This document shows positions 6,948 to 27,710 of a DNA stretch of 64,000 nucleotides, piece by piece. The notes under the pieces were generated by a model that worked only from the letters and a program-made list of their open reading frames with translations, ran no database searches and was not told where the DNA came from. The stretch comes from Candidatus Latescibacterota bacterium (lineage in GTDB: Bacteria; Latescibacterota; UBA2968; GCA-2709665): positions 3,392,001 through 3,456,000 of the forward strand of contig OZ242358.1 in assembly GCA_965208835.1 (NCBI GenBank), read 5' to 3'. Numbering within the stretch: position 1 is the first letter of the stretch; each line of letters starts with the position of its first letter. The position numbers and the translations under genes were made by a program.

Positions 6948-7580
6948 TCAGTTTCTTTCCTTCAACAACATCCTCATGTCGGGCAGGAGTTTCTTCACGA
7001 GACCGGGATCGGTCCCGTCGTAGTATGCCCGGACCCGCCCCTTTCTGTCCACCAGCGCAAAGCGCAGGCTGTGCATAATCTGGTCCGTGCCTTCTTCCAC
7101 GCCTCCCACACCCAGTTGAAAGCCGTTACGAATGACGCTGTACACACCGGGCTTCTCGCCTGTCAGAAACAGCCAGCGATCCGCATCCGCCAAGTAGCGG
7201 TCCGCATACCCGGAGAGCACCTCGGGGGTATCCCGCTCCGGATCCACGGAAAAAGACACGAGGCGCGCGTCCGGATATTTCCTCAGCGGCGCCTGGAGCG
7301 CCTGCATTTTCGCCGAAAGCAACGGACACGGACCCGCGCAGTGCGTGAAGATGAAGTCCGCGACCCAGACGCGGCCGAGCAGTTCCGAGAGACCCATCTG
7401 CCTGCCGCTGCGTTCCACGAGCAGGAAGTCAGGAACCTCGCCCAGAACCGGCATGCGCTGCGATTGGGCACGTATGGCCTTGAGTTCGCGCAGGAACAGA
7501 AACGTCCCCACGGTCAGCATCAATAGCGTCGCGCCGGCGAGCACCAGCCAGAAAACGCGAACCTGTCTGGGTACACCCAT
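6948..7580 (-). CDS. SCO1/SenC copper chaperone
   Basis: FIFTHCAGPCP (CxxxC), SVDPERDTPE, conserved His in IMHS; N-terminal TM anchor. Confidence 0.92.
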   Translation of the reverse strand: MGVPRQVRVFWLVLAGATLLMLTVGTFLFLRELKAIRAQSQRMPVLGEVPDFLLVERSGRQMGLSELLGRVWVADFIFTHCAGPCPLLSAKMQALQAPLRKYPDARLVSFSVDPERDTPEVLSGYADRYLADADRWLFLTGEKPGVYSVIRNGFQLGVGGVEEGTDQIMHSLRFALVDRKGRVRAYYDGTDPGLVKKLLPDMRMLLKERN

Positions 7581-7585
7581 CGGTA

Positions 7586-9326: not shown

Positions 9327-9338
9327 AGGGACTCCTCA

Positions 9339-9420
9339 GAAGCTGTCTTTAAACTCCCAGCGGTCTTCGCGCGGCTGCCGGAACGACGGCGCGAGACACC
9401 GGGAACGTTCAAAGCCGCCG
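9339..9420. repeat. MITE family B degenerate copy
   Basis: GAAGCTGTCTTTAAACTCCCAGCGGTCTTCGCGCGGCTGC matches the left end of 53613..53800; right end degenerate. Confidence 0.6.
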
Positions 9421-9509
9421 CATGTCGGAAACCGACGCGATCCCAAAAGAGAAAGGTGATAGGCAACCCCTATCACCTGGCAATACCCGGTTTGCGTCGA
9501 CCGACCCGA

Positions 9510-10412
9510 CTACAGAAACGCATCGAGCAACAGGGCGATCCAGAGCAGAGGCAGATAGACCAGCGTCGTTCGCAGCAGCCGTCTCGCGTTCTGCTCCGTC
9601 CGGGTTCTGGAAAACACGACAACATAAAGGACGAGGCATAACCCCGCCGCCGCTGCCACGGCCGCGTAGAGCAAACCGGTCATCCCCGCAAGCCACGGCA
9701 GAAAGGAAAAAACCAGCAGGATAGCGCCGTATATGCCGATCTGCGCTGCCGTCCTTCGTCCCGCCGGATCGTCGATGGAAACCATCTTGAATCCGCCGCG
9801 TTCGTAGTCGTCCCTGTAGATCCAGGCGATAGAGAAAAAATGAGGAAACTGCCACAGAAACAGAATGCCGAACAGCAGCCACGCGCCCCAGCCGATCTCC
9901 CCCTGCGCCGCGGCCCAGCCGCCCATCGGCGGCAATGCTCCGGCAACGGCGCCCACCGCGGTATTGTGCGTCGATCTTCGCTTCAACGGCGTATACATGA
10001 ACAGATAAATAACTGATGTCAACCCTGCCAGAAGGGCCGCCAACCAGTTGATCTGCAGCCCCATATAGAGGATACCGGTTCCGGACAGCAGCAGCCCGAA
10101 CAGATAGGCCTCTTCCGCATACAGACGACCGGCAGGAAGGGGCCGGTTCGCCGTGCGCTCCATCCTGGCATCCGGCTTCCGTTCCAGGAACTGGTTCAGT
10201 ACGGCCGATCCGCTCGCGACAAGGACGGTCGCCAGCAGCGTATGCAGGAGTCGAGTGGACTCGATGACGCCGGCCGCGCCCAGAACGAACCCGACCGTTG
10301 TACTCAATACGACAAAGACGGTGATTTTGGGCTTGGTGAGGGCCACGTAATCCATCAGGCGCGCCCACGACAATGCCACGTCCGCCGTCCCGGCCTCAAC
10401 CCGCGGTTTCAT
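9510..10412 (-). CDS. ctaB: protoheme IX farnesyltransferase (heme O synthase)
   Basis: LTKPKI, DARMERTANRPLPAG, YTPLKRR, WQFPHF. Confidence 0.95.
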   Translation of the reverse strand: MKPRVEAGTADVALSWARLMDYVALTKPKITVFVVLSTTVGFVLGAAGVIESTRLLHTLLATVLVASGSAVLNQFLERKPDARMERTANRPLPAGRLYAEEAYLFGLLLSGTGILYMGLQINWLAALLAGLTSVIYLFMYTPLKRRSTHNTAVGAVAGALPPMGGWAAAQGEIGWGAWLLFGILFLWQFPHFFSIAWIYRDDYERGGFKMVSIDDPAGRRTAAQIGIYGAILLVFSFLPWLAGMTGLLYAAVAAAAGLCLVLYVVVFSRTRTEQNARRLLRTTLVYLPLLWIALLLDAFL

Positions 10413-10433
10413 AAAAACAAAGTCCTCCAACGC

Positions 10434-11438
10434 TCAGTTTTCTACCTGCACCGTTGCGACCCTGGAATCTACTGCACCGCATATCCGCCATACGCGCAGC
10501 GTCAGCACCAGGCTGGTGGCAAGCACCGTCGCACCCACGACCACGTGTAACGTCGTGATTGCGACCGCCTTGCCCGTCCAGATCACCAGGGCCCCCAGCG
10601 CCAGTTGAACGACAAGCTGCGCCAACAAAGCCACGGAGGGCCTCGTCAGTTCGGGCCGGGATCCGTGGGCGCGCAGAACGCGGCACGCGGTCCAGACCAG
10701 AACGCCGGACACGACAACGGCCCACGCCCGATGGGCAAAGTGAATGGCAACACGTGTCCGGAACGTTTCGATTGAAATGGGAAACGGGTCCGTGGCGTCC
10801 ACAGTCAATTCGGAGAACGGCGGAATCAGGCGGCCGAAGGAAAGCGGAAAATCGGGAATGGCCAGGCCGGACTCGGTATGCCGCATCAGCGCGCCGAGGA
10901 CAAGCTGGATGAAAACCACCACCGTGCCGGCGGCGACCAGCCACTTCAGCGGCGCCCCGCCCGTCTCCGAAATCGGTTCCACCGCCGCCTGCCAGCCCGC
11001 CGACGTAAACAACGCGATGCCAACGGTAACACAGAAAAAGACTTGCGCCAGGCAGGCGTGACTTACGGAAATCCACGTGGGCAGGAGGTACAGAACCGTC
11101 AACCCGCCCAGCAGGCCCTGCAGAACAACCGCGGCCAGGGCTGCAACACCCAGGATTCGCAACCACCGCCGTTCTTCCCGCCGCCACAACCAGATGGCAA
11201 GAGCGGTCGTCAGGATCCCCACGAACGTCGCCACCATCCGGTGACCGTGTTCGTAGAAAATCCCGCCGATCATGGGCGGAAACACCATACCGTACGAAAG
11301 CGGCCAGTCAGGTACCGCCAACCCGGAGCCCGTACTGCTGACCATCGCACCGGCGAAAATTAAAAAAAGGGTGGCGCCGGCCGTGAACACGGAGAACCGG
11401 TGCAGCCAGCGATACCCCTTCGACATCGCGATATCCAT
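10434..11438 (-). CDS. ctaA: heme A synthase (COX15/CtaA)
   Basis: GSGLAVPDWP, FYEHGHR, QGLLGGLTV, HFAHR, TTLH. Confidence 0.9.
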   Translation of the reverse strand: MDIAMSKGYRWLHRFSVFTAGATLFLIFAGAMVSSTGSGLAVPDWPLSYGMVFPPMIGGIFYEHGHRMVATFVGILTTALAIWLWRREERRWLRILGVAALAAVVLQGLLGGLTVLYLLPTWISVSHACLAQVFFCVTVGIALFTSAGWQAAVEPISETGGAPLKWLVAAGTVVVFIQLVLGALMRHTESGLAIPDFPLSFGRLIPPFSELTVDATDPFPISIETFRTRVAIHFAHRAWAVVVSGVLVWTACRVLRAHGSRPELTRPSVALLAQLVVQLALGALVIWTGKAVAITTLHVVVGATVLATSLVLTLRVWRICGAVDSRVATVQVEN

Positions 11439-11466
11439 TTCCGTCCGGCTCACCCGCCAACCCCGG

Positions 11467-11757
11467 TCATTCCGCGTCGGCGGCAAGCCACTTGCCGTTC
11501 AAACCGGGCATTCCCGGCCGGCCCCGGGAATTATCCAGCGCGTTACCGAAACGTCGCGCCCGGCGCACCCAGAAGATCGTCACGCCCACAATTCCGACCA
11601 GCACGGACACGACAATCCCCATCAGCACCAGGACCCCCGCCGCAGCCCCCTTCGCCATATCGGATTCCGGATTCCCGTAACACACCGCGCATGCCCGAGC
11701 CACCTCGGGAATCATAACGCCAATGGCTACGGCCGCGGCAACGCAGGCGCGCCTCAC
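11467..11757 (-). CDS. small membrane protein with CxxC motif (oxidase-cluster associated)
   Basis: Signal-like N-terminus, ARA-CAVCYG, one TM helix, basic tail; GTG start overlaps upstream TGA. Confidence 0.6.
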   Translation of the reverse strand: MRRACVAAAVAIGVMIPEVARACAVCYGNPESDMAKGAAAGVLVLMGIVVSVLVGIVGVTIFWVRRARRFGNALDNSRGRPGMPGLNGKWLAADAE

Positions 11758-11960
11758 AGGTAACTCCATCCCTTGAGCTTTTTCAGAAACCAAAGGCCGT
11801 ACCAGACCAGGACGCCGCACCCGGCAAAGGAAGCGACGCCGAGTCCGAGATTCGTGCCGTTGCCCGTTGCGAGGTAGTCCTGAATCGCCCAGATGCCGAA
11901 ACCCAGACAGCACAGTACGGACACGGTGCCAAAGACCACGTGGAATGTTCTCAGAGACAT
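11754..11960 (-). CDS. small two-TM membrane protein
   Basis: MSLRTFHVVF... 68 aa, two hydrophobic helices, GGAG upstream, in operon. Confidence 0.65.
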   Translation of the reverse strand: MSLRTFHVVFGTVSVLCCLGFGIWAIQDYLATGNGTNLGLGVASFAGCGVLVWYGLWFLKKLKGWSYL

Positions 11961-11985
11961 TGGGTTCTCCGAATCTGGACTAACC

Positions 11986-12291
11986 CTACATTTCACCCAC
12001 GCCCGAAAATTCCGTAAATGAAGGCAGCAGCATCAGTAATACAAAAAAGGCGACCGTCACCGCCAGCACCCAGTAAATAATCTGTTTCTCGGAAACCAGA
12101 TGCATGAAATAGCCGGCGACCAGCCCGCCCTTGATACTCGCAATGAACAGTGCGATCAGGACCGTTACCGCAACCGACTCGATATGGAGATAGGAGACGG
12201 CGACCGTGACTACCGTCAGCACGGCCAGCGCGGCAAACACCAGAATGTAGACCCGAACATGCTTCCTGATCTCTTCAATGCTATCGGCCAT
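11986..12291 (-). CDS. cytochrome c oxidase subunit IV family protein
   Basis: YILVFAALAVLT...IASIKGGLVAGYFMHL (COX4_pro pattern). Confidence 0.85.
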   Translation of the reverse strand: MADSIEEIRKHVRVYILVFAALAVLTVVTVAVSYLHIESVAVTVLIALFIASIKGGLVAGYFMHLVSEKQIIYWVLAVTVAFFVLLMLLPSFTEFSGVGEM

Positions 12292-12301
12292 ACCAGGCTC
12301 C

Positions 12302-12901
12302 TTACAGCAAATAAAGTATCGGGAACAGAAAGATCCAGACCAGATCCACAAAGTGCCAGTAAAGTCCCGCACACTCGATCCGGTTGGCAAACTGCTCGGG
12401 GGCGGTATGCCAGAGCTTGCTTCCCGGGAACAGCAGGTAGACATTCACCACGATGCCGCCGATCACGTGCAGTCCGTGCAGGCCGGTCATCGTAAAATAC
12501 GTGGCGTAGAAGGTGCTGGTGGAAGGATAGATGCCGAGATGAAACTTGTGGGTGTATTCGAAGTATTTAACAACCAGGAATACGAACGAGAGCAACACCG
12601 TCAGGCCAAGATAAAGCTTGAACCTGCCGAAATTGTCCATTTTCAGGGATGCCCAGGACATAACCATGGTCACACTGGACGCGATGAGCACGAACGTATT
12701 CAGCGTGGCCAGCGGTACACTCAGCAGCTCCCAGCCATGAGGCCAGGTCGGCGCACCGACCCTGAGCAGCACCAGCGTTGAAAACAGTGCGCCAAACAGC
12801 ATGACCTCGGACGCCAGGAACAACCATATCCCGAATTTCCCGTTATACACCCCCGTAATGGGGTGCGGCTCCACCGTGTAGGGGATTTCTTCAACGGACA
12901 C
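12302..12901 (-). CDS. ctaE: cytochrome c oxidase subunit III (short form)
   Basis: FLASEVMLF, TGLHGLHV, YWHFVDLVW. Confidence 0.95.
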   Translation of the reverse strand: MSVEEIPYTVEPHPITGVYNGKFGIWLFLASEVMLFGALFSTLVLLRVGAPTWPHGWELLSVPLATLNTFVLIASSVTMVMSWASLKMDNFGRFKLYLGLTVLLSFVFLVVKYFEYTHKFHLGIYPSTSTFYATYFTMTGLHGLHVIGGIVVNVYLLFPGSKLWHTAPEQFANRIECAGLYWHFVDLVWIFLFPILYLL

Positions 12902-13159
12902 CGTTTATCTCCCTTAACCAGGATTCGTATGGTTTCGTGGACGTGAATTCGAACACGTTTGAGTTGACAAAGGCGATTAAACTGCGGATTACCAGGATAC
13001 ACCAGGTCACTAAACGTGAACGGTATAAATGTCTTTCTGGACGACCTCTACGCCCCGTTTTGGCAGTCTTCGTCGCGTTGCCGCGTTGCTGTTCTTGTTC
13101 ATTGAGGTTCGTTTTCTCGGACGGATGCCGGGGTTCCAACGTGCCCCCAAGCGGCGGGC

Positions 13160-14962
13160 CTAATCGTCGTCCGCCGGCGTTGGCGCCGGTTCGGGTTCGG
13201 GTTGGGCCACCTGCCCGTTTTCAGACGCGTATTGAGGCGTAAAGTCGCTCGAGGCACCGGGCACGCTGTATTCGTAAGGCCCCCGGTAGACCTTGGGCGC
13301 GACGGCGAAATTTCCGTGCGGCGGGGGCGTCGGCGTCGCCCACTCGAGCGTGGTGGCCTGCCATGGATTGTCCGACTCCACCTTCTTGCCCTTCCTGATA
13401 CTCATAAAGAAGTTGACGATGAAGAATATCTGAGCCAGCCCCAGCAGCCAGGCAGACCAGGAACTCATGGCCGTCAGGCCCTGTACCTGAGCCCCGTAGG
13501 CATATTGGGTCTGGTCGTAGAGACGCCTGGAAACTCCGGCCATCCCAACGAACAACATCGGCATGAAGATACCGTTCATGAAGACCAGACTCGACCAGAA
13601 ATGCAGCTTACCCAGGGCCTCGTTCATCATGCGGCCCGTCACCTTGGGGAACCAGTAATAGACACCTGCAAACAGCGCGAAAATCGTTCCCGGCGCCACC
13701 ACGTAGTGGAAGTGGCCGATCACGTAATACGTGTCGTGCAGATGCAGGTCCGAGGCCGTGAGGCCCAGCGGCAGCCCGGTCAACCCCCCGATGGCGAACA
13801 TGGGGATAAACGCCAGGCAGAACAGCATGGGAACCGTAAACCGGATGGACCCGCCATGGAGGCTCAGCGCGAATGCGGTCAGGATGATTACCGACGGAAT
13901 GGAGATAATCATGGTTGTGGCCTGGAAGAATGTACTGATTGTCGTCCCCATCCCGGTCATGAACATGTGATGCGCCCACACGATAAACGACATGAAACCC
14001 AGAAAGACAATCGAGTAGACCAGCGTGCGATATCCCCACAGCGGCCGGCGCGTGTTGTTGGCCACGATCTCGCCTACGATGCCCATCGCCGGAAGAATCA
14101 GCACGTAGACTTCGGGGTGCGCGAGAAACCAGAACAGGTGCTGCCACAACAGCGGGCTTCCGCCGCCGCTCACCTCTAGCGGCTGTCCTGTGACCACCAG
14201 GCCGCTCGGCATAAAAAAGCTGGTACCCGCGATCCTGTCCATGAGTTGCAGGACCCCAGCGGCTTCTAGCGGCGGGAACGCCAGCAGCAGCAGAAACGCC
14301 GTCACAAACTGCGCCCACACGAAAAATGGCAGGCGGAAAAAGGTCAGGCCCTCGGCCCTCATCTGCACGGTCGTCACGATGAAGTTCACCGAACCCAGTA
14401 ACGACGACGTGATCAGGGCCACCATGCCCCATAGCCACCAGGTCTGCCCCGTCGGTGCGATGACGGCCAGCGGTGGATAGGAGGTCCAGCCGGACTGTGC
14501 CGCGCCTTCCGGAACGAAAAAGCTGGCCAGCATAATGACGCCGCCCACGAAGAACACCCAGTAACTGGCCATGTTGAGCTTGGGAAACGCCATATCAGGC
14601 GCACCGATCTGGAGAGGCAGCACGTAATTCCCGAATCCGCCCACGGCCAGCGGAACAACACCCAGAAAGACCATGATTGTGCCGTGCATCGCACCCAACT
14701 GATTGTAAAACTCGGGCACCATGATCCCTTCCGGCATATTTATCGCGCCGAACAACTTCCCGATCCAGGGCATCGGCTGTCCGGGATAGGCCAGTTGCCA
14801 ACGCATCATCATCATCAGGCAGAAGCCGAAAAACAGAAAAAACAGGGCGGTGACCGCGTACTGAATGCCGATGACCTTGTGGTCGATGGAAAAAACGTAC
14901 TTGCGCCAGTAGCTCAATTCGTGGTGTCCATGATCACCGTGCGCTTGCTCAGCCATAAACAA
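13160..14962 (-). CDS. ctaD: cytochrome c oxidase subunit I (A-type)
   Basis: DHKVIG, HGTIMVF, PDMAFP, AHPEVY, WAHHMF, HDTYYVIGHFHYV. Confidence 0.97.
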   Translation of the reverse strand: MFMAEQAHGDHGHHELSYWRKYVFSIDHKVIGIQYAVTALFFLFFGFCLMMMMRWQLAYPGQPMPWIGKLFGAINMPEGIMVPEFYNQLGAMHGTIMVFLGVVPLAVGGFGNYVLPLQIGAPDMAFPKLNMASYWVFFVGGVIMLASFFVPEGAAQSGWTSYPPLAVIAPTGQTWWLWGMVALITSSLLGSVNFIVTTVQMRAEGLTFFRLPFFVWAQFVTAFLLLLAFPPLEAAGVLQLMDRIAGTSFFMPSGLVVTGQPLEVSGGGSPLLWQHLFWFLAHPEVYVLILPAMGIVGEIVANNTRRPLWGYRTLVYSIVFLGFMSFIVWAHHMFMTGMGTTISTFFQATTMIISIPSVIILTAFALSLHGGSIRFTVPMLFCLAFIPMFAIGGLTGLPLGLTASDLHLHDTYYVIGHFHYVVAPGTIFALFAGVYYWFPKVTGRMMNEALGKLHFWSSLVFMNGIFMPMLFVGMAGVSRRLYDQTQYAYGAQVQGLTAMSSWSAWLLGLAQIFFIVNFFMSIRKGKKVESDNPWQATTLEWATPTPPPHGNFAVAPKVYRGPYEYSVPGASSDFTPQYASENGQVAQPEPEPAPTPADDD

Positions 14963-14968
14963 GGCTCC

Positions 14969-15739
14969 TTAGAAGGAAAAATCGTCTTCTTCGTCCGCGG
15001 CGCCGGACTGCTCGTCGAACCAGGCCTGAAACGTCTCCTCCGACTCAACCGTCAACTGCCCGCGCATGCGGTAGTGCCCCAGTCCGCATAGCTGGGCGCA
15101 GGCGATGTCGAATGTTCCGGTTCTGGTCGCCTCGAACCAGATCCTGATGTCCTGGCCCGGAATCGCATCCTGCGTCAGGCGCATCACGGGGATTTTGAAA
15201 CTGTGAATGACATCCTTCGACGAAATGTGCGCAATGACGGGTCTGTCCTTCACAATGTGCAGATTGTTGATGGCATTGAAATCGTCGCTGCCGTCAGGAT
15301 CGTCGGGATCCAGGCCCAGCAGATTGTCAGCACTGACGAATTCGGGTGCCGTCCGTCCGAATTTTCCGTCTTTCCCGGAGTAATGAATATTCCAGGCAAA
15401 CTGCTCGGGTACCACCCGCACCACAAGCGCGTCGGATTCGTCGGGAAACGCGTGTTTGAAGTCGGCCCAGAGCGGCATGGACAGTCCCACAAGCAGTACG
15501 GCCTCGACGACGATCACGCCGTACTCCACGTATTTGGCGGTTTTTCCCTTGACGGGATCGTAGTTCGCGTCAGGGTTTGCCCTTCTCCGGTAGCGGACAA
15601 GGCAGTAGACGAAGAAGACGCCCCAACCCAGAAACAGGGCAATCATAAACACATGCAGCCAATTGATCAGCCAATCCACGGTTGCGCCGTGGGTTGAGAT
15701 GTCAATTGGCAGCCAGTAACCGTACACCTTTTCTTGCAT
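14969..15739 (-). CDS. ctaC: cytochrome c oxidase subunit II (CuA, no fused cytochrome c)
   Basis: DVIHSF and CAQLCGLGHYRM CuA ligands; two TM helices. Confidence 0.95.
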   Translation of the reverse strand: MQEKVYGYWLPIDISTHGATVDWLINWLHVFMIALFLGWGVFFVYCLVRYRRRANPDANYDPVKGKTAKYVEYGVIVVEAVLLVGLSMPLWADFKHAFPDESDALVVRVVPEQFAWNIHYSGKDGKFGRTAPEFVSADNLLGLDPDDPDGSDDFNAINNLHIVKDRPVIAHISSKDVIHSFKIPVMRLTQDAIPGQDIRIWFEATRTGTFDIACAQLCGLGHYRMRGQLTVESEETFQAWFDEQSGAADEEDDFSF

Positions 15740-16804: not shown

Positions 16805-19800
16805 CTATCGTCTGGTGAGCCGGGAATCCTGATGGAGGCCGTGGATGATGTAATCCGTAAGCGCCTCGATGACCACGTCAGTCGGCAGAACGAGAAAACC
16901 GTCCTCCGGCTTGACCCCCTCGGGCAGCTTCAGATAGGCGGCCATTTCCTCGGGAAGGTACGTCATTTCTTCGCCGAAGAACGTGGGCATCTTGGTGCCC
17001 GGCTGAAGCTTCTGCGGATCCCACAGCCAGTCCCTGATCCACGCCTGTTTCAACCGCTCCCTACCCAGCTTCAGGTCGGGCGCCCAGCTTGCCGGGTCGC
17101 CCGTGGGCTTGATATCGCCCTGCTGGTGGCAGGTGAAACAGTTGTAGATGTCCTGACTGAACAGTTTTCTTGCACCGATCATCTCTTTTGAATTCAACCG
17201 TTTATGTACAAAAGTCGCGTACGGAAACTGTTCCTTGTCCAGTCGGGAAAAATAGGTGACCAGGTCGATGGCGTGCTGGTCTTCGAAGCCGAACGTGGGC
17301 ATCCGCGTCTCGAGCCAGGGCCGGATTGGCTCCACATTCTTCAGGAAAGCGAAGAACCAGTCCGGCTGGACTTTCCTGCCTTCGCCGTTCAGGGACGGCG
17401 GCACGTAGCCCTCGGCGTCGGACGCGGAGACTTCCTCGGCACCGTAAGCCTTCACGAGAGGATCCCGGATCGCCCCGCCCTGGTTCTCCACAACGTGGCA
17501 CCCTTTGCAATTCCTGTCGTATACCAGCCAGCGTCCCTTCTCGATGTCGACTTCGTCGGGCTCCAGGCGTTTGACCGCATCGGTGCCCACCTGGCTCCGG
17601 TTCAGGCTCAACAGCGCTGTCGTCAACGCGTGCGCGTCTGCATCGCTCAGGCCGAACTGCGGCATACGCAGCTTGTCGTCGAACTGCCTTACTTTGCCCT
17701 TGTCGAAGACACGGGGCTGTTTGAGCTTCTTGAAGAGCCAGTCGTGACGCGTGTAGGGAATGGCGTCCGGATCGGTGTTGTAGGCGCCAGGTTTCCTGGC
17801 CAGCAGACCGAAATCCAGCTTGTCCACGTCCTTGCTGCCTTGCTCGGTCAACTCCGTGCCGATGGGCTGGGTATCTTCGAATCCGGGAATGAGATGGCAT
17901 CCGAAGCAGCCTTGCCGGGAGATGATCTTTTCACCCAGCCAGATGTCCCGCTCGTGACTCGACATCTCAGCCAGTTGCAGCTTCGCGGTCTTCACGGGCA
18001 ACCGGCTTCGCAGATAATTCAGGACCAGGTCGTCGCGCACCTGCGCGTCCACCGCGGCCACCTGCCGGGCTTCAAACTCCGTATTCCGAAGCGTCAGCAG
18101 ATACGCCGATATGTCTGCCGCCTCACGGTCGGTCAACCTCAGATTCGGCATGCGCGTGTCCGGGAAATAGGCCGTGGGATCCTTCAACCACGCGTAAAGC
18201 CAGCCCTCGGACAGCTTGCTGCCCACGTCGTTCAGGTTCGGCCCGAAATTCCGGAGTCCATATTCCTGGCCCAGACGGTCGTCTGCGCCCACCACGTGGC
18301 AGGCCTTGCAACCCACCATTTCGACGAGTCGCTCGCCCCGCCCGGCATCGCCTTGTACCGGCGGCGACGGGTATTCGGGCCGCTCGGACTTCTCGAAGAT
18401 ATACGACACAACGGCATTGACCGCGGCCGTATTGCGCGCGATATCCTCCGGCCCGCTCACGTTGGCCAGATCGAAGATCTTGGGCATCTTGGTGGTTGGC
18501 CGGAACCCCTTGGGATCCCGGACCCACTTGATGGCCCAGTTTCGATCCAGCTTGCCTGCCGCCTTTCGCAGGTCCGGCCCGACCTTCCGCTGATCCTGCA
18601 GGGTATGTTTCGCGATTTTGTGGCAGCCGGCACACCCCAGCGTACGAACGAGATGGAGGCCGCGATTCAGCCGGTCCGCTTCAGGGACGTCCACAACGCC
18701 CGCGTGGCACTGGGCGCACGAAGCTTCCACGTAGCGGCCGGGCAGCATGGGGTGGTCCCAATACTTCATCTTCTTCCAGCCGTACAGCTTCTTCCAGCGG
18801 GCAGCCTCGACGTCGTCGCTCGGGGTATGGGCCGTATTCTTGAACGTCACGCCCCGATCCCTTCCGAGGTGACAGGTGGTGCATCCGGACTCGGAGAGGG
18901 GATGGGGAGAGCCGCTGCTCAGGAAGAGGTCCAGTCTCGGATGTGTGGCGAACGTCCTGGTGCGCCCAAGCCGGACGTCGTCTTCCGCGTAGACCGTTTC
19001 CATGTAGGTTTTCAGCGTCTCATCCTTGAACCAGCCGGTTTCCGGATCGAGCTCGTAACCCGGTCGATCGATGTTCACGTGGCAGGTTGTACAGCGGTCC
19101 ACCCGGGGAACCCGGGTAAAGTTGAGCTCGTTTCTCAGGTCGGCCAGAACGACCTGCCTGACCTTGATGGAAGGATCGATAAAATCGACCATCGGCAGGT
19201 TTCGGAACACGTTTGGGAAACTGGGAACGAGACCCGTCAGCTTTCGCCTCAGGTTATCTTCATCCTTGTGTAGCGCGCGACGACGGGACTCCAGGGCCTG
19301 TCGCTGCCCGGCCACTTCGTCGATGATCTTCTGCTGCGCCTTCTGCTTTTCCTCCACGGCCTCCCTGGTCAGCCGGAACTCGTACATCCGGGCTTCCATG
19401 GCTTTCATCTCGGCCTTTTTCTCTGCCGCCGTTTCGTCATGCCCGGCTTTGGCAGCGTCTTCATACTCAAACTTCGCCACATCGTACATCGCTTTTTCAA
19501 ACTTAAGCCTCTGATCGGCGCTGTACCACTCCGCCTGAGTGAGGCGCTTCAATTCGGTCGTCGCCGCGCCCACACGTTCCTGGTGTGCCCGAATCGAGGC
19601 CTCTATTCCCGCGAGTTCATCCTCAATCGCCTTCAGCGCGCCCTGATCGACGTTCTGCTTTGCCAGCTCGATTTCGGCTTCGGTCTTGAACGCCTCCAGC
19701 GCCATCGCTTCCTTCTGAAAACCCTTCCATTCGCGGTCGTAGTCATCCCAGACCATCCAGATTACGGACAGAACCAGCACCACGCTGGACAGGGCGAAAA

Positions 19801-19858
19801 TCATGTTCATTTTGTCTACATTGTAGACAAAATCGATGAAGCGTTTCGGCTCATTCAT
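16805..19858 (-). CDS. membrane-anchored octaheme cytochrome c
   Basis: Eight CxxCH motifs (CTTCH x2, CAQCH, CAGCH, CKACH, CFGCH, CKGCH, CFTCH), N-terminal TM helix, long coiled coil. Confidence 0.9.
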   Translation of the reverse strand: MNEPKRFIDFVYNVDKMNMIFALSSVVLVLSVIWMVWDDYDREWKGFQKEAMALEAFKTEAEIELAKQNVDQGALKAIEDELAGIEASIRAHQERVGAATTELKRLTQAEWYSADQRLKFEKAMYDVAKFEYEDAAKAGHDETAAEKKAEMKAMEARMYEFRLTREAVEEKQKAQQKIIDEVAGQRQALESRRRALHKDEDNLRRKLTGLVPSFPNVFRNLPMVDFIDPSIKVRQVVLADLRNELNFTRVPRVDRCTTCHVNIDRPGYELDPETGWFKDETLKTYMETVYAEDDVRLGRTRTFATHPRLDLFLSSGSPHPLSESGCTTCHLGRDRGVTFKNTAHTPSDDVEAARWKKLYGWKKMKYWDHPMLPGRYVEASCAQCHAGVVDVPEADRLNRGLHLVRTLGCAGCHKIAKHTLQDQRKVGPDLRKAAGKLDRNWAIKWVRDPKGFRPTTKMPKIFDLANVSGPEDIARNTAAVNAVVSYIFEKSERPEYPSPPVQGDAGRGERLVEMVGCKACHVVGADDRLGQEYGLRNFGPNLNDVGSKLSEGWLYAWLKDPTAYFPDTRMPNLRLTDREAADISAYLLTLRNTEFEARQVAAVDAQVRDDLVLNYLRSRLPVKTAKLQLAEMSSHERDIWLGEKIISRQGCFGCHLIPGFEDTQPIGTELTEQGSKDVDKLDFGLLARKPGAYNTDPDAIPYTRHDWLFKKLKQPRVFDKGKVRQFDDKLRMPQFGLSDADAHALTTALLSLNRSQVGTDAVKRLEPDEVDIEKGRWLVYDRNCKGCHVVENQGGAIRDPLVKAYGAEEVSASDAEGYVPPSLNGEGRKVQPDWFFAFLKNVEPIRPWLETRMPTFGFEDQHAIDLVTYFSRLDKEQFPYATFVHKRLNSKEMIGARKLFSQDIYNCFTCHQQGDIKPTGDPASWAPDLKLGRERLKQAWIRDWLWDPQKLQPGTKMPTFFGEEMTYLPEEMAAYLKLPEGVKPEDGFLVLPTDVVIEALTDYIIHGLHQDSRLTRR

Positions 19859-19960
19859 CGAACGGCTCCGGGGCGGTGGCGTACACCCTGAGTGCCGCCA
19901 CCAGCCCAATCAGATATACCACGGAATGTTGCGGCGGCGCCGGAAACCAAACGAGAACCC

Positions 19961-21037
19961 TCAGATATTGAAGAAATACTCCGGTATGGCGACAATGTAC
20001 TTCAGGTTGAACAGCCAGCGAAGCAGCATCTTGATGGGGAGGGCAACCATACAGAGGAAGAAGAATATCATCACGCTGTAGCGTGCGAATCCCATCGTCT
20101 TGTAGAATTCCTTGAACACGGTCTGCGCAAGTAAGGGCGGCGGCACCAGAAAATACAGGATGACCACCAGAAAACCCCATATCTCGCGCGTCAACCAGAA
20201 CGATGGCAAACCCGTTCCAAGCCACTGGACGTAGATGTACTCCGACATATTGACGTTGACAAGGGCTTCCAGTTTGTGCACGTCCCAGAATTCGTAGGGT
20301 CCGAAGAAGTTCCAGTTCGGGCCGCGCAGAAACGTGCCAATCATGATCAGCAGCACCCACAGCACCACAAAACCGAATAGAAATACCGTAATGGCGAACC
20401 GGCGTTCCTTGAACGTGTAATAGCCCAGCCCCTTGGGATTCCGGTCGATATACGGAATGGCCATGAGCCCCACGATGACAAGTGTGGGAAGGACAACCCC
20501 GGCGATCCATGGATCGTAATACACCAGCATTTCCTGCAGCCCCAGGAAATACCAGGGCGCCTTGGAAGGATTGGGTGTTTTCGCCGGGTTGGCCGGCTCC
20601 TCGATGGGCGCCTTGATGAGCACGGACCAGAGAACCAGGAACACAGTAGCCAGGGTCAGGCAGATCAGCTCCGTGTAGACCAGATGCGGCCAGGTGAGGA
20701 CCTTTTCCTTGAATTCGGCTTTCTCTACCGGACCTTCTCCCCTCGCGATGCGATCGTCGTTATCGTACCCCTGTTTCAGACTGTACCAGACAAAGAAACC
20801 CACCAGAAACAGCAGCATGACAATGGGTATATTGTCTCCCTTTGTCACAATGATGCGGAAATTCTCGTCCTGAAAACTTACAAGGAAAAACACAATGGAG
20901 ATGATCAGGGCGGGGAGGCCGAACCGGACCGTCCAGACCCAGCGGGTCCGCAAGGCCAGGAAAAAAAGCACGGCAAACAACGGCAGGAAATATTCAGGCG
21001 TGAGAAGCCAGTTAACGAAGCCTTTCAGAACGTCCAT
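19961..21037 (-). CDS. cytochrome b C-terminal / subunit IV-like protein with extra TM helices
   Basis: TWPHLV, EEPANPAKTPNPSKAPWYFLGLQE (Qo loop), IPYIDRNP. Confidence 0.85.
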   Translation of the reverse strand: MDVLKGFVNWLLTPEYFLPLFAVLFFLALRTRWVWTVRFGLPALIISIVFFLVSFQDENFRIIVTKGDNIPIVMLLFLVGFFVWYSLKQGYDNDDRIARGEGPVEKAEFKEKVLTWPHLVYTELICLTLATVFLVLWSVLIKAPIEEPANPAKTPNPSKAPWYFLGLQEMLVYYDPWIAGVVLPTLVIVGLMAIPYIDRNPKGLGYYTFKERRFAITVFLFGFVVLWVLLIMIGTFLRGPNWNFFGPYEFWDVHKLEALVNVNMSEYIYVQWLGTGLPSFWLTREIWGFLVVILYFLVPPPLLAQTVFKEFYKTMGFARYSVMIFFFLCMVALPIKMLLRWLFNLKYIVAIPEYFFNI

Positions 21038-21082
21038 CGTCTACCTCGAAGATTCCCCGTTTCTGCCACACCGGGGACGTTA

Positions 21083-21868
21083 CTACATCGGGCCGGAAAT
21101 CCCTCCGTCTTTTCGGACCCGCCAGAAGTGGACAGCCATAAGGACAGCCGCAACGAACGGGATGAAGAGACAATGCAGGACATAGAACCTCAGAAGCGCG
21201 CCTTCCCCGACGAACCGACCCCCAAGCAACGCGAAACGGGCATCGTCGCCGGCGTGGACCAGATTGATATCACCAAGCATCAGGAACGCCGCCCCCGGAC
21301 CTTCATGCCCGAGAAACGGGGTTGCCCGCGCCATATTCGCCCCTACGGTTATCGCCCAGATGGCAAGCTGGTCCCAGGGCAACAGATACCCGGTAAAACT
21401 CAAGAGCAGCGTCAGCAGCAACAGAATGACGCCGATCGCCCAGTTGAATTCCCGGGGAGGCTTGTATGATCCCGTCATAAACACGCGCAACATATGCAGC
21501 CAGACCGTAATGATCATCGCGTGGGCGCCCCAGCGATGGATCTCCCGCATGATTCCCAACGGCACCTGCTCGCCCAGGTCGATGATGTCGGTATAGGCGT
21601 ATTCGAGCGTGGGCCGGTAGTAGAACATGAGCAGAATGCCCGTTATGGTCTCGATCAGAAAAATAAAAAAGGTGAGCCCACCCATACACCACGTGTAGCG
21701 CACCCGGATTCCTGATTTCGGGGTCCGAACGGGATGCAGATGCAGGAATACGTTCGTCAACACCACCTGCGCCCGGCCGCGTTCGTCTCTCGGTACGTCG
21801 TGCCGGAAGACGGACTTCCATATTTGAGAGCGTTTTGTCCGGTCCAGGAGGCCGGAAAATTTCGGCAT
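21083..21868 (-). CDS. cytochrome b6-type N-terminal subunit
   Basis: [40 protein letters not shown]-x14-H. Confidence 0.93.
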
Positions 21869-21895
21869 ACCGTGTTCTCCCGATTATACCGCTAT

Positions 21896-22055
21896 CAGTC
21901 CGTTGATAAAGTCGCTCTGCAGGCGAGGCCGAGCCATTGTGGGCGAAGACAAGGCGCGCAACCGAGTCCCATCGAGCGATTCGGCGAGGGAGCGCAACGC
22001 AGTTTTTCGACCGCAAGGGCCGGCCGCAGCCCGGATGGACTTTTTTAACGGGCTG
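21896..22055. mobile_element. MITE family A copy (160 bp)
   Basis: TIRs CAGTCCGTTGATAAAGTC / GACTTTTTTAACGGGCTG; body shared with copies at 24301 and 27582. Confidence 0.8.
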
Positions 22056-22151
22056 CTATGCTGAAACTGACAAGAAAACCGCGTAAAGGAGGCTTCAGAA
22101 GTGTACCTGCACCCCCGCGAAAACCGCGGAGGTGACTTTTCGACAGCTTGT

Positions 22152-23102
22152 TCAGATACGCAAAAAGGACTCCGGGTTGTCCCAATGCCCTTTTTCATAC
22201 TGGAATTTCCGTGTTTTGTCGACCAGTACCTGGCCGTCCTCGGCAAGTACGATGCGCGCCCTTTCCAGCGGACGCGGGGCCGGACCCTCGAAATTGATGC
22301 CCGTCATATAAAAACCGCTGCCGTGACAGGGACACTTGAATTTCTGTTCGTTTCCAAGCCAGTTGGGCGTACAACCCAGATGCGTGCAAACCGAAATGAG
22401 CGCGAACATATCCTGCGTGGTTTTTACAATCCAGACGCTGAACTTGTCTTTCCAGCGTTCATCCACACCCAGGTCGTAGTCATCCGCGAACCCGATCTTG
22501 AATGACTGGGGCGGCTCGAACAGCACATTCGGGAACAGGAAGCGTGCGAAACCCAGAAGTCCCGCGGTCGAAGCGACCGCAAATGACGCCCACGCCAGGG
22601 TCAGCCACGTAAAAAATCCGCGGCGGGTGGTCATGCCACCTTCGGCCACGGACTGTGTTCTCTCCGGCCCGGGGCGAATCGCGGGCGGGGCGGGCGACGT
22701 CTGCACGATCACGCGTTCCGCAGCCGGCTCGTCGGTTTTCTGCGTTAACGCGCGGGCGGCCGCGGCCCTGTCCGCGGTGGTCGCTGCTTTTTTGGCAGGC
22801 GCGCCTGCCGGCGCGGCCTTGCCGCCACCACGGGCCTTGCGTATCAACTCCGCCTTGGCCTTCGCGCGGGCAACGCGATCCTGGATATCGTCAAGCGACG
22901 AAAGATCCACCTCGGCGGCTTCGGTATCGCCACCGGAATCGTCGGCGGCCTGCGCGGACGCTCCCTCCGCCGGCTCTGCCACGGACTCATCGCCCGCGGC
23001 GGCCTCCCGGGCCTTGCGAATCGCTTCCGCTTTCGCCTTGGCCCTGGCCACCCGATCCGGAATTTCGTCGAATTCCGACAGATCGATTTTGTCTTCCGAC
23101 AT
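22152..23102 (-). CDS. Rieske 2Fe-2S subunit with long repeated N-terminal extension
   Basis: CTHLGC and CPCHGS; internal Tat anchor TRRGFF near aa 158; GPAPRPL. Confidence 0.93.
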   Translation of the reverse strand: MSEDKIDLSEFDEIPDRVARAKAKAEAIRKAREAAAGDESVAEPAEGASAQAADDSGGDTEAAEVDLSSLDDIQDRVARAKAKAELIRKARGGGKAAPAGAPAKKAATTADRAAAARALTQKTDEPAAERVIVQTSPAPPAIRPGPERTQSVAEGGMTTRRGFFTWLTLAWASFAVASTAGLLGFARFLFPNVLFEPPQSFKIGFADDYDLGVDERWKDKFSVWIVKTTQDMFALISVCTHLGCTPNWLGNEQKFKCPCHGSGFYMTGINFEGPAPRPLERARIVLAEDGQVLVDKTRKFQYEKGHWDNPESFLRI

Positions 23103-23225
23103 GTTATCCCCCGGAAACCTGCCGAGCGGTTTTCGAGCGGAAACACTTCAGGGCTTGGTTATACGTGATATAAGACAGGGAAATACTGGAAATTGAATCA
23201 CTTACAGCGCAAAATACACCGGCCA

Positions 23226-23254
23226 AATATATCGAAATCATCCCGAATTGTCAA
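23226..23254 (-). promoter_or_regulatory. sigma70-type promoter upstream of the Rieske operon
   Basis: TTGACA-17 nt-TATATT on the minus strand. Confidence 0.65.
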
Positions 23255-23361
23255 GCGGGATTTTCCGTAGATACGGACCTCCCGGGGACGTAGAAAAAGG
23301 GACCCGACAGGCACTCATAAAGGGCCGGATCCCCCGCTGCAATACCGTCTGTTCGCGCTGT

Positions 23362-24270
23362 TCATTTCTTCCCCCATACATTCAGAATTTCTATGGCGGC
23401 CTGCCGGACACGCAGGTCCGAATCCTGTTCGCGCAGGCGCTGCAGCGCGGGGGTCAGGGACCTGGCGTTGAGCATGCCCACGGCCCTGATCGCCTCGACA
23501 AGGATATTGCGACGGCCCTCGCCACTTATCCGATCGAACCCTTCCAGGTATCCCGGGCTCAACATCTCCTCCAGCACCTCCAGGCCCGCATTATTTCCCG
23601 CGACGGCCAACTGCAGGGCGGCATTCCAGCGAACGTCGGGCGCGCGGTCGTGAAGCGCCTGTTCCAGCGCCGGCGGAACGAGAGGGTCGTCCAATCCCCC
23701 CAGAGCGTATACCGCGGCCTTGCGCAATCCCGCGTCGTCGTTCGATGCGATTCTGATCAGGTGCGGCACGGCGACCGGGTCTCCCTGCGCCCTCAGCGAA
23801 AACATCGCGTTGATCCGGGTTTCGTCGTCAGGGTCTTCCAATGCGGCGATCAGAACGCCGACGAGTTCGGAATCCTGTACCCTTCCCATGGCCGCGGCCA
23901 GAAAACGCCTGACTCGGGGGTCGTCCGACCGGGAAGCCTCGAACACCCGGATCAACTTTCCGACAAACCTGCGGCCGATCCGACCTTCGCGCTGCTCCTG
24001 GTCCAGGACGGTGGCCAGTTCGTACGCGGCCTGCCACCGGCTGTTGATTCCGCCCACCCGAATTGTATTGAGATAGTCTTCCGCCGTCTTTCGCTCGACC
24101 GTCAACAGCCCCAGTCCCAGGTATATTGCAAGCCCGACCAGAATGATCGCCACGGGAAAAATGACGAACTGCGAGACCAGTCTCGCCCTGGAGACGTCCG
24201 CGTCCGAAACCGGAGCGGTGGCGTCTTCGGCGATTTTTCTGAGTTCCTCTTCGGGAGTCTGCTGGTCCAT
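23362..24270 (-). CDS. membrane-anchored HEAT/PBS-lyase-like repeat protein
   Basis: One TM helix, then repeats such as ALEDPDDETRINAMFSL and ALHDRAPDVRWNAALQL. Confidence 0.85.
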   Translation of the reverse strand: MDQQTPEEELRKIAEDATAPVSDADVSRARLVSQFVIFPVAIILVGLAIYLGLGLLTVERKTAEDYLNTIRVGGINSRWQAAYELATVLDQEQREGRIGRRFVGKLIRVFEASRSDDPRVRRFLAAAMGRVQDSELVGVLIAALEDPDDETRINAMFSLRAQGDPVAVPHLIRIASNDDAGLRKAAVYALGGLDDPLVPPALEQALHDRAPDVRWNAALQLAVAGNNAGLEVLEEMLSPGYLEGFDRISGEGRRNILVEAIRAVGMLNARSLTPALQRLREQDSDLRVRQAAIEILNVWGKK

Positions 24271-24300
24271 ACGACAACCCCTGTCCAAAAAACACCTTAA

Positions 24301-24624
24301 CAGTCCGTTGATAAAGTCGCTCTGCAGGCGAGGCACGGTGTCCCGTCCCGGAAATATGTCACCATTCATCCGCCGATTCATCCCGTCTGGTGGCGTTGCC
24401 TTCGCTCGGCGACCACGGACAGGTCTCCTTGCTCAGGCGCCTTGCCAGCCGGGTGACTCGGCGGTCGAATTTCGGCAATCTATTTCCGGGTCGGAACACT
24501 TGCCATTGTGGCCGAAGACAAGGCGCGCAACCGAGTCCCATCCTGCGATTCGGCGAGGGCGCGCAACGCCGTATTTCGACCGCAAGGGCCGGCCGCAGCC
24601 CGGATGGACTTTTTCAACGGGCTG
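24301..24624. mobile_element. MITE family A copy carrying a nested element
   Basis: Same TIRs and body as 21896..22055 with an insert at 24338..24499. Confidence 0.8.
24338..24499. mobile_element. nested MITE family C (162 bp)
   Basis: TIRs GTGTCCCGTCCCGGAAATA / TATTTCCGGGTCGGAACAC (17 of 19 complementary). Confidence 0.7.
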
Positions 24625-24654
24625 TCAGAGCCGACGCGCAAGTACACAGGGTCC

Positions 24655-24684
24655 AATATAACCAGAGGCCACACACGCTGTCAA
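24655..24684 (-). promoter_or_regulatory. sigma70-type promoter for the HEAT gene
   Basis: TTGACA-18 nt-TATATT on the minus strand. Confidence 0.55.
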
Positions 24685-24735
24685 GATCGGTGTCATGACC
24701 CGCGAATTCCTGACCATTCAACCGCCGATTCACCC

Positions 24736-24764
24736 TTGACAACCCTGGTGAAAGACCTTATTTT
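24736..24764 (+). promoter_or_regulatory. sigma70-type promoter for the ferredoxin-domain gene (divergent)
   Basis: TTGACA-17 nt-TATTTT. Confidence 0.55.
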
Positions 24765-24822
24765 AGCCTTGGATGGCATGACTCACGCAGGCAGGCACAT
24801 TCTAACCGGAGATTACGACTCA

Positions 24823-25557
24823 GTGAACGTAGACCTTACCCAGTTTGACAACATCTCCGACCGGGTGGCTCGCGCCAGGGCCAAAGCCGACGCCGTGCGG
24901 AAAGCCAAAGAGGGCGCCGGCGACGCCGCGGAAGCCGCGTCCGACGCAGCCAAAGCCGCACCGGAAGCCGCGACCGCCGTCGCGGAAGTCGAAAGCGAAC
25001 CTGCCGGCCTTGCCATTCTCGAATTCAGGCCCGGCATGCATTTCAAACTGAACGGGCGTGCCGGACGGACCGTGGGTATCCGCTACGACCTGGTCAGCTT
25101 CGTTTACGATGACGACCCCGACCAGCTCATTACCGCGGACCGGTACCGCCTCAGCCACGCGCACGCGGAGGGCACGCTGGAATTCGCCCCGAAGTCAGAA
25201 GTCTACCGTCCGGAGCGAGTCTCCAGGAAAGAACGCGTCGACTATCACGAACACCTCTGGCTTGAATCCCGCTCCGGCATGACGGCCAAGAAGAAGCGGC
25301 CGCGGCATATCGCCATTATCAACCCGGACTATTGCACAGGCTGCAACGCCTGCATCGAAGTTTGTCCAACGGACTGTATCGAGGAAGTTGACGTGGCCGA
25401 CGCCGGCCTGGACGGCATCGGCACGTTCTGCGAAGTCCGGCTGGAAGACTGTATCGGATGCATCCAGTGCGTACATATCTGCCCGTGGGAAGCCATCGAA
25501 ATGGTGGGCACCCAGCAGGTTGAAGAGGCGTACGGCATCCCCGTGGGGACATTGTAG
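24823..25557 (+). CDS. 2x[4Fe-4S] dicluster protein with N-terminal motif shared with the Rieske protein
   Basis: CTGCNACIEVCP and CIGCIQCVHICP; GTG start at 24823 after GGAG. The longer ORF start lies inside a MITE, upstream of the promoter. Confidence 0.85.
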   Translation: MNVDLTQFDNISDRVARARAKADAVRKAKEGAGDAAEAASDAAKAAPEAATAVAEVESEPAGLAILEFRPGMHFKLNGRAGRTVGIRYDLVSFVYDDDPDQLITADRYRLSHAHAEGTLEFAPKSEVYRPERVSRKERVDYHEHLWLESRSGMTAKKKRPRHIAIINPDYCTGCNACIEVCPTDCIEEVDVADAGLDGIGTFCEVRLEDCIGCIQCVHICPWEAIEMVGTQQVEEAYGIPVGTL

Positions 25558-27512: not shown

Positions 27513-27581
27513 CGTCCTCTCCGCCTGTCTATTCAAAACGCGCGCACGAGCCGGACGCCGCCGCCCTCTTGCGTGCGTTAG

Positions 27582-27710
27582 CAGTCCGTTGAACAAGCCG
27601 CTCTGCAGGCGAGGTATGCTGTCCCGTACAGCGATTCGGCGAGGGAGCGTAACGCAGAATTCCGACCGCAAGGACCGGCCGTAGCCCGGATGGGCTTCTT
27701 CGACGGGCCG
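27582..27710. mobile_element. MITE family A internally deleted copy
   Basis: CAGTCCGTTGAACAAGCCGCTCTGCAGGCGAGG ... CCGGATGGGCTTCTTCGACGGGCCG. Confidence 0.75.

Follow-up and report, generated by a model that had tools for sequence, protein, structure and literature searches.

We analyzed a stretch of 64,000 nucleotides from a Candidatus Latescibacterota bacterium (GenBank assembly GCA_965208835.1, contig OZ242358.1, positions 3,392,001 to 3,456,000 of the forward strand), hereafter referred to as the window and numbered from its first letter. It encodes a peptide motif of 28 residues. Two copies lie at the N-terminus of the Rieske subunit in a quinol:cytochrome c complex of the b6 type, and one is carried by a neighbouring, divergently transcribed protein with a 2x[4Fe-4S] ferredoxin domain. 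The motif is a small protein module without a previous description; it is both rare and clade-specific, having been found in a single group of uncultured bacteria only. That the two motif-bearing proteins are functionally coupled is well backed by comparative genomics. The presence of a common tag on the Rieske subunit and the neighbouring Fe-S protein suggests that it may hold both together, and physical tethering of the Fe-S protein to the complex is plausible from the sequences compared here. Outside subscription journals and supplements, the literature yielded no account of the motif, a tagged Rieske subunit, a tag shared by Rieske and ferredoxin proteins or such a complex.

A motif common to a Rieske subunit and a ferredoxin-type protein

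The three copies of the motif in the window, with their scores against the motif profile, are as follows.

23004-23087, minus strand: motif copy R1, IDLSEFDEIPDRVARAKAKAEAIRKARE, Rieske residues 6-33 (translation; 62.8 bits)
22827-22910, minus strand: motif copy R2, VDLSSLDDIQDRVARAKAKAELIRKARG, Rieske residues 65-92 (translation; 59.5 bits)
24829-24912, plus strand: motif copy F, VDLTQFDNISDRVARARAKADAVRKAKE, ferredoxin-type protein residues 3-30 (translation; 64.1 bits)

All three conform to the consensus [IV]DLxx[FL]DxIxDRVARA[KR]AKAxA and are 61-75% identical to each other at the protein level and 61-70% at the DNA level. The initial annotation of the window had given exactly these positions, as translation confirmed. 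In a search of all 64 kb, translated in six frames, the best match outside the three copies scored 3.9 bits against the profile, and a profile made from ferredoxin N-termini alone recovered the Rieske copies with scores of 46-66 bits. The resemblance among the copies goes far beyond chance.

We found that the motif is selected as protein. Over 79 motif copies (28 loci, described below, and the window), codon-position entropy was 0.45, 0.25 and 1.38 at positions 1, 2 and 3, respectively; third positions therefore vary far more than first and second positions, and an RNA-level or DNA-level cause was rejected on this basis. Column conservation was 0.83-0.84 within the motif versus 0.40-0.41 in the adjoining linkers. 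The Ala-rich linker that had been described after each copy was found throughout, the 26 residues following the 79 copies containing 749 Ala, 294 Gly, 191 Pro and 182 Glu. Orthologous copies were more alike (identity 0.88, and 0.76 for distant pairs) than copies inside one genome (0.70), so their similarity is not maintained by gene conversion, which was excluded as the source of the likeness. Each copy retains its own identity, with the signatures E..E.P in Rieske copy 1, S..D/E.Q in Rieske copy 2 and Q....T/S in the ferredoxin copy. The motif is a specific selected element and not low-complexity noise.

Among 1,835,955,588 representative proteins, 28 matched the motif profile at E<=1e-3: 11 Rieske N-termini (many of them fragments), 5 ferredoxin-type proteins, 5 proteins in which one to three motif copies are followed by a middle domain and C-terminal transmembrane helices and which have no Fe-S domain, and 7 weaker relatives. 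One member of a membrane-anchored motif cluster was from a Handelsmanbacteria metagenome-assembled genome. The occurrence of the motif in many unrelated low-complexity proteins, which would have spoken against a dedicated function, was thus not observed, only these 28 of 1.84e9 representative clusters being matched. The 7 distant relatives (P0189-P0195) comprised 4 members of a NuoI-like 2x[4Fe-4S] family, 2 membrane-anchored SRPBCC-like proteins (P0192, P0193) and 1 protein of unassigned type. In the NuoI-like proteins, a weaker motif, MDLSxLNxIxDRVxRGKAKS, occurs twice on a C-terminal extension; for P0189, the E-value to the motif profile was 4e-8 and the hhalign probability 94%, with a NuoI score of 61 versus a cut-off of 113 bits. 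Similarly, the SRPBCC-like proteins carry weaker relatives of the motif as 4 repeats. Basic tags of this kind may thus form a wider family among membrane-associated redox proteins, as these sequences hint. The motif matched no Pfam family at E<=10 in a scan of 13 proteins or segments, and a PDB profile search gave nothing meaningful (best match E 3.9).

Close homologues of both window proteins carry the motif, whose absence from either set would have counted against the initial annotation. It was present in 42 among the best 120 of 7979 Rieske matches (23 twice, 19 once), these being the closest homologues, and in 21 of 21 aligned ferredoxin-type proteins. The other 78 of the best 120 Rieske matches were without it; two of them, P0078 and P0086, start at a Met inside the motif.

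A genome scan (one genome per species) with the pattern DRV[AET]RA[KR]AK[AS] matched 96 stretches, 57 of which were confirmed and gave 28 loci on 28 contigs, one locus per contig. These loci included 20 labelled as Latescibacterota/Latescibacteria and 5 as Gemmatimonadota/Gemmatimonadetes. In all 28, the motif occurred on both the Rieske-side gene and the divergent partner gene, in agreement with the pairing first noted in the window, and a HEAT-repeat gene lay between the two. Of the 28 loci, 27 showed cytochrome b6 and 26 both subunit IV and cytochrome c; the missing genes were accounted for by L017, which lies at a contig end, and L020, where the stretch concerned gave no match. Both were excluded from a tree of cytochrome b6 and subunit IV (27 rows), in which the loci fell into approximately seven deep lineages, with 15 loci in one shallow clade together with the window. 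The number of motif copies varied between one and two on each of the Rieske subunit and the partner, and that on Rieske had changed at least 3 times along the tree. Copy R2 was present in the window and in 19 of the 27 loci scored and absent in 8; L018 (~6140-6433) was excluded from the copy-by-copy counts, its Rieske N-terminal extension containing masked bases (X).

The motif-bearing proteins and the complex

The two proteins are encoded divergently, with the HEAT-repeat gene between them. On the minus strand, a string of genes runs from HEAT through Rieske, cytochrome b6 and subunit IV-like to cytochrome c (region 16805-25557).

22152-23102, minus strand: Rieske [2Fe-2S] subunit gene, 316 residues (Pfam PF00355, E 7.5e-8)
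22626-23102, minus strand: cytoplasmic N-terminal extension of the Rieske subunit, residues 1-159, with two motifs, acidic variable linkers and a PAKKA-type stretch (sequence, alignment)
22743-22775, minus strand: conserved extension segment ADRAAAARALT (conservation ~0.75)
22665-22712, minus strand: conserved extension segment VIVQTSPAPPAIRPGP (conservation ~0.75)
22614-22625, minus strand: twin-arginine (Tat) motif RRGF, Rieske residues 160-163, followed by the membrane anchor (most hydrophobic segment from residue 167)
21083-21868, minus strand: cytochrome b6-type subunit (Pfam Cytochrome_B, E 5.4e-41; NCBIfam cytochrome b6, 186.7 bits)
21677-21688, minus strand: CMGG of cytochrome b6, residues 61-64, a CxGG motif with the presumed haem cn Cys
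19961-21037, minus strand: subunit IV-like membrane subunit (Pfam Cytochrom_B_C, E 3e-8; NCBIfam ExtQ)
16805-19909, minus strand: membrane-anchored c-type cytochrome with 8 CxxCH motifs, exact start uncertain (Pfam, motif count)

The Rieske protein contains the ligand motifs CxH...CxxH, as CTHLGC and CPCHGS, and is matched below cutoff by the NCBIfam b6-f/bc1 Rieske models. Residues of Rieske subunits ahead of the Tat anchor remain cytoplasmic. The anchor was correctly recognized in the initial annotation: a hydrophobic segment comes next after RRGF, and both motif copies precede it. In the part of PMC13673990 available, Rieske N-terminal membrane anchors are described as uncleaved Tat signals. 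Within the extension, the PAKKA-type Lys/Ala/Pro stretch lies upstream of the two conserved segments, and the sequence across the region of these segments differs in the lineage of L024, the most divergent locus.

Pfam domains confirmed a split cytochrome b, with the b6 and subunit IV domains on separate genes. The nearest named family is ExtP/ExtQ, the b-type cytochrome pair of the Geobacter ext cluster; neither subunit reached the NCBIfam cut-offs for membership (ExtP 268.8 versus 290 bits; ExtQ 64.2 versus 150). The Cys that had been reported on cytochrome b6 is indeed there, in CMGG, and we take it to be the haem cn ligand. The CxGG motif is treated alongside an extra haem cn site near the cytochrome b N-terminus in the sections of PMC5600118 available.

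The partner gene and its domains are listed below.

24823-25557, plus strand: gene for the motif-linker-middle domain-2x[4Fe-4S] protein, 244 residues, GTG start (orthologue alignment, GGAG)
24913-25002, plus strand: hypervariable acidic Ala-rich linker, residues 31-60 (conservation 0.40 versus 0.83 for the motif; net charge -6)
25003-25212, plus strand: middle domain, residues 61-130, matching no family (alignment)
25318-25554, plus strand: 2x[4Fe-4S] domain, residues 166-244, with two CxxCxxCxxxCP motifs (Pfam Fer4; net charge -14)

Although the longest open reading frame (ORF) of this gene extends over 24508-25557 (349 residues), the true start is almost certainly GTG 24823 because of the GGAG at 24808-24811, the orthologues and the conserved N-terminus. 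Homologues align from this position, most of them having ~244 residues and starting with M/V-N-V-D-L, and this start places the motif at the extreme N-terminus, as on Rieske. The protein has 47 close database clusters at 58-100% identity (48 hits in total), and D4, R14, V15, R17, A18, A20, K21, A24 and R26 are invariant in the 21 aligned orthologues. It is signal-less, as had been stated: no hydrophobic segment was found, and its best 19-residue Kyte-Doolittle window (1.24) lies within a cluster motif. Its two cluster motifs, CTGCNACIEVCP and CIGCIQCVHICP, place it in the Fer4 clan (PF00037, 6e-11; PF14697, 1.5e-10). PDB matches of the Fe-S domain were polyferredoxins and PsaC (PsaC E 3e-9); the equivalog cut-offs were not reached for PsaC (32 versus 130.65 bits) or NuoI (TIGR01971, 31.2 versus 113). 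The Fe-S domain had a net charge of -10 to -15 in the window and 26 loci (27 sources), and across 45 homologues from the database the range was -10 to -17. As for the middle domain, it had no Pfam match, and a PDB profile search gave two chance-level matches and no PetP, PsaE or NdhS; an SH3-type fold is an idea prompted by its strand-like sequence pattern alone.

In L024, the partner is split over two genes (7860-9320). The first (ORF 7860-8846, motif start ~8001) encodes two motif copies, the middle domain and two transmembrane helices, and the second, 157 bases downstream, a 105-residue 2x[4Fe-4S] ferredoxin with a net charge of -10 overall. This free ferredoxin corresponds in sequence to the C-terminal region of the window protein, and the HxWL...KKKRPRxIAIINPD lead-in is part of the match. 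The split indicates that the motif belongs with the middle-domain module and not with the clusters. The membrane-anchored architecture was also found in four database clusters (P0171, P0173, P0184, P0186). The middle-domain module has a membrane anchor when the ferredoxin is a separate protein and none when the two are fused. A functional link of the motif-bearing module with the membrane and the ferredoxin is strengthened by the split form.

The intervening gene encodes a membrane protein of tandem HEAT repeats.

23362-24270, minus strand: HEAT-repeat membrane protein, 302 residues, likely start ATG 24270 (Pfam HEAT_2, E 1.3e-25)
24112-24168, minus strand: single transmembrane segment of the HEAT protein (hydrophobicity, alignment)

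In addition to HEAT_2, it matches HEAT_PBS (8.3e-9), and it falls far under the NCBIfam equivalog cut-offs for CpcE and NblB. Its family had 662 matches at E<=1e-10, with a long tail at ~40% identity and the same length, and an N-terminal transmembrane segment was present in 118 of the best 120 (P0214-P0333). None of these best 120 of 662 matches carries the motif. The HEAT family is thus much wider than the motif, and the HEAT protein therefore predates it; such complexes may have had it as an accessory or assembly factor from earlier on.

Possible role of the motif

The motif has an acidic first half (the DLSxFDxI cap, net charge -3) and a basic half (+5). The latter is predicted to form a helix, DRVARAKAKAEAIRKAK (DRVARAKAKAEAxRKAK type), whose hydrophobic moment is only 0.01-0.07 and whose mean hydrophobicity is -0.5 to -0.6. 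At such a low moment the basic helix is not amphipathic and has no seam for a helix bundle or coiled coil; a membrane-surface helix was rejected for the same low moment. Extra copies with the basic helix alone are present in P0171 and P0184, which makes the basic half the apparent working unit. The lack of amphipathicity, the acidic Fe-S domain and the copies consisting of the basic helix alone make an electrostatic arm on an acidic protein surface the preferred explanation.

We consider it possible, with a probability of roughly 0.45, that the motif serves as a flexible basic docking arm by which the ferredoxin module is held on the cytoplasmic face of the complex. Each arm would begin with a short acidic cap, continue as an Ala/Arg/Lys helix that is strongly basic and non-amphipathic, and extend into the cytoplasm on a flexible linker. 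It would be displayed once or twice on the Rieske N-terminus and also once or twice on the partner, in which a middle domain accompanies a PsaC/NuoI-like 2x[4Fe-4S] ferredoxin domain. As the same arm is found on both proteins, both would have to bind one acidic surface, the preferred candidate being the very acidic Fe-S domain itself, although the case for electrostatic binding to this domain is circumstantial. The ferredoxin module would then be caught and held at the n-side, near the Qi/haem cn site, by the arms of Rieske and of the partner in its membrane-anchored form. We infer that the motif may bind a partner, and which one, and that the Fe-S clusters may exchange electrons with the quinone (Qi/haem cn) site.

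Several points weigh against a docking arm of this kind. The acidic cap is conserved as well as the basic helix, and a model based on charge leaves this conservation unexplained. Acidic 2x[4Fe-4S] domains are common, which makes charge complementarity weak evidence, and the charges of the motif and the Fe-S domain correlate weakly (Spearman -0.37, p 0.06, with kinship ignored; 26 loci and the window). Capture by the Rieske arms leaves the fused protein's own arm unexplained, divergent transcription could mean co-regulation without physical contact, and the 28 loci represent only about seven deep lineages.

The initial annotation had regarded the motif as a docking or bundling tag, or as a ligand of a common scaffold, with repeats on RnfC as a partial precedent. 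Its docking interpretation stands with regard to specificity, conservation and co-occurrence; peptide bundling is disfavoured, and the RnfC precedent is not supported. If the Rieske and ferredoxin copies packed together in a coiled coil or small bundle, they would form a direct tether, and the same sequence on both partners with a variable copy number is what would be expected of homotypic tags; besides, the acidic and basic halves could pair antiparallel. The hydrophobic moment given above leaves no hydrophobic seam and disfavours bundling of the three peptides, copies without the acidic half exist (P0171, P0184), and the helix has merely ~17 residues. We regard such bundling as improbable. 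Binding of both motifs to the intervening HEAT-repeat membrane protein, which would place the ferredoxin module by the complex, is unlikely in our view but has several features in its favour. HEAT/ARM solenoids frequently bind basic helical peptides, and the HEAT gene intervenes in every locus; its product combines one transmembrane helix with a conserved solenoid, and within the clade its N-terminal tail has a conserved acidic stretch, EEELRKIAEDA (charge -4). On the other hand, the absence of the motif from the best matches in a far wider and older family argues against a dedicated receptor, and the repeat domain may be periplasmic, the charges flanking the membrane segment being compatible with either topology. 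A shared scaffold as suggested initially is possible as such, and it is its obvious candidate that is weakened.

Two further explanations do not involve contact within the working complex. The basic helix and the PAKKA-type stretch could bind a non-protein polyanion (acidic lipid heads, nucleic acid or polyphosphate), resulting in co-localization without contact. The high positive charge of the helix and the Lys/Ala/Pro stretch of the Rieske extension would agree with this possibility, as would the weaker relatives of the motif that are repeated four times on membrane-anchored SRPBCC-like proteins; a non-amphipathic helix is a poor membrane-surface binder, however, the invariant cap (D, L, F/L, I, D) and invariant spacing point to a specific protein site, and the strict pairing with the partner module would be left unexplained. 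These considerations make a polyanion quite improbable. Still less probable, we believe, is a biogenesis or quality-control tag, which would be read by a chaperone, Fe-S delivery factor or protease during assembly. Both window proteins bear Fe-S clusters and have the tag at their extreme N-terminus, and cofactor insertion into Rieske is required before Tat transport, according to the portion of PMC13673990 available. In L024, however, the motif is on the cluster-less middle-domain/transmembrane protein and not on the separate ferredoxin, the second Rieske copy is internal, and no other motif protein was found in the six-frame translation of the window or in the fetched loci, a scope that does not extend to the other Fe-S proteins of these genomes.

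A more specific version of the docking arm would be a hard-wired ferredoxin-coupled b6-type enzyme, in which fly-casting Rieske arms hold the PsaC-like module over haem cn and electrons enter or leave the quinone pool at Qi. We consider this unlikely as a whole. In such an enzyme, low-potential electrons would enter at the Qi site, or leave it in a reverse or bifurcating mode. Electron transfer from ferredoxin to the quinone-reduction site via haem cn has been debated for decades in connection with cyclic electron flow in chloroplasts and cyanobacteria. There, the partner binds the b6-type complex only transiently, as far as the available parts of PMC9342900 and PMC5600118 describe it. The Latescibacterota module has a tag in common with Rieske, is always syntenic and occurs in fused and split forms. 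If the hard-wired enzyme existed, it would be a natural, stably assembled form of the long-debated ferredoxin:quinone reductase route via cytochrome b6f, and the related arms on NuoI-like subunits might play an equivalent part in a complex I that depends on ferredoxin. A 2x[4Fe-4S] module genetically welded to the complex would offer a stable object for cryo-electron microscopy and electron-transfer assays. The motif is also useful as a metagenome marker for such complexes and, possibly, as a portable tether for redox-complex engineering.

Known systems resemble this arrangement in part. In modular polyketide synthases, docking domains, like dockerin-type tags elsewhere, are small terminal helical elements on flexible linkers that join defined subunits. 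These are complementary pairs, whereas the Latescibacterota motif would be the same tag on both candidate partners. Ala/Arg/Lys-rich repeats also occur on the cytoplasmic part of RnfC/RsxC, a 2x[4Fe-4S] membrane redox subunit, with six repeats of the DPRKAAVEAAIARAKARK type in E. coli RsxC. They have only ARAKA in common with the motif and no DLSxFDxI cap, and all eight matches of the motif profile on E. coli RsxC scored below zero (-3.8 to -9.6 bits), which excludes these repeats as relatives of the motif.

PetP of cyanobacterial b6f is likewise a small peripheral protein of the n-side (cytoplasmic face), where it lies close to the haem cn end; in the text of PMC9342900 available, it binds near the cytochrome b6 C-terminus and is discussed as a competitor of Fd-FNR for the proposed site. 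PetP is an SH3-fold protein of ~10 kDa without an Fe-S cluster or a tag common with Rieske, whereas the Latescibacterota partner has two [4Fe-4S] clusters and a motif also present on Rieske, and no sequence similarity was found between the two. The Rieske/cytochrome b complexes of anammox planctomycetes similarly have cytoplasmic Fe-S redox proteins in bc-type gene clusters, with electron exchange proposed at the n-side (PMC5600118). These partners are large, NAD(P)-binding and operon-encoded, and no shared peptide tag is described for them in the available part of that paper; the Latescibacterota partner, in contrast, is a small, divergently transcribed ferredoxin-type protein. Finally, PsaC with PsaE/PsaD in photosystem I and NdhI with NdhS in NDH-1 also combine a 2x[4Fe-4S] protein of the cytoplasmic face with a small accessory domain, and NdhS and PsaE are named SH3-type electron-transfer modulators in the passages available from PMC9342900. 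Their homology to the window protein is only generic Fer4, for the Fe-S domain, and they lack a repeated basic tag between subunits.

Promoter-like sites, repeats and neighbouring genes

Between the HEAT and ferredoxin genes, two promoter-like sites lie back to back, each identified by consensus match only.

24736-24764, plus strand: promoter-like site before the ferredoxin gene, TTGACA-17-TATTTT
24684-24655, minus strand: promoter-like site before the HEAT gene, TTGACA-18-TATATT

Altogether, 5 promoter-like sites were found, compared with 1.0 +/- 1.0 in shuffles. Another, TTGACA-17-TATATT (11/12 matches), is located at 23226-23254, after the stop of HEAT and ahead of the start of Rieske; transcription of Rieske and the genes downstream may therefore be separate from that of the HEAT gene.

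A repeat of ~165 nucleotides occurs three times in the window (21892-22055; 24297-24346 together with 24502-24624; and 27578-27710). The copies are 71-94% alike and all lie in gaps of minus-strand genes: between Rieske and cytochrome b6, upstream of HEAT, and between ileS and dksA. The repeat makes the ORFs of the HEAT and ferredoxin genes look longer than they are. It had no Rfam match, and its hairpin fold was no better than that of shuffles (z -1.37). Its 33-nucleotide core was not found in shuffles, and exact matches were present in two of the fetched loci only (twice in L011 and once in L005).

Directly downstream of the bc genes and on the same strand, an aa3-type oxidase cluster (COX2, COX1, COX3, CtaA/COX15, SCO1) and an ABC-2 transporter pair occupy 6948-15739. 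COX2 and COX1 were also found downstream of the bc genes in L012, L021 and L023. On the other side, three loci have a cassette between the ferredoxin gene and rluD (L016, 9116-12423; L022, 9860-12931; L021, 2345-5525), which encodes a TPR protein, an actin-like protein (MreB/Mbl-type) and a ParB-like protein and, in L016, an additional small protein matching no family. ORFs of similar size and order occupy this position in L018, L027 and L028, and translations at 10440-12728 of L024 read, by eye alone, as TPR-like and actin-like. The window and its close relatives are without this cassette. At the beginning of the window, G+C is lower (0.53 over the first 2 kb). A 708-residue ORF (2546-4672) contains domains of a family B DNA polymerase (E 1.5e-14) and an exonuclease (E 1.3e-11).

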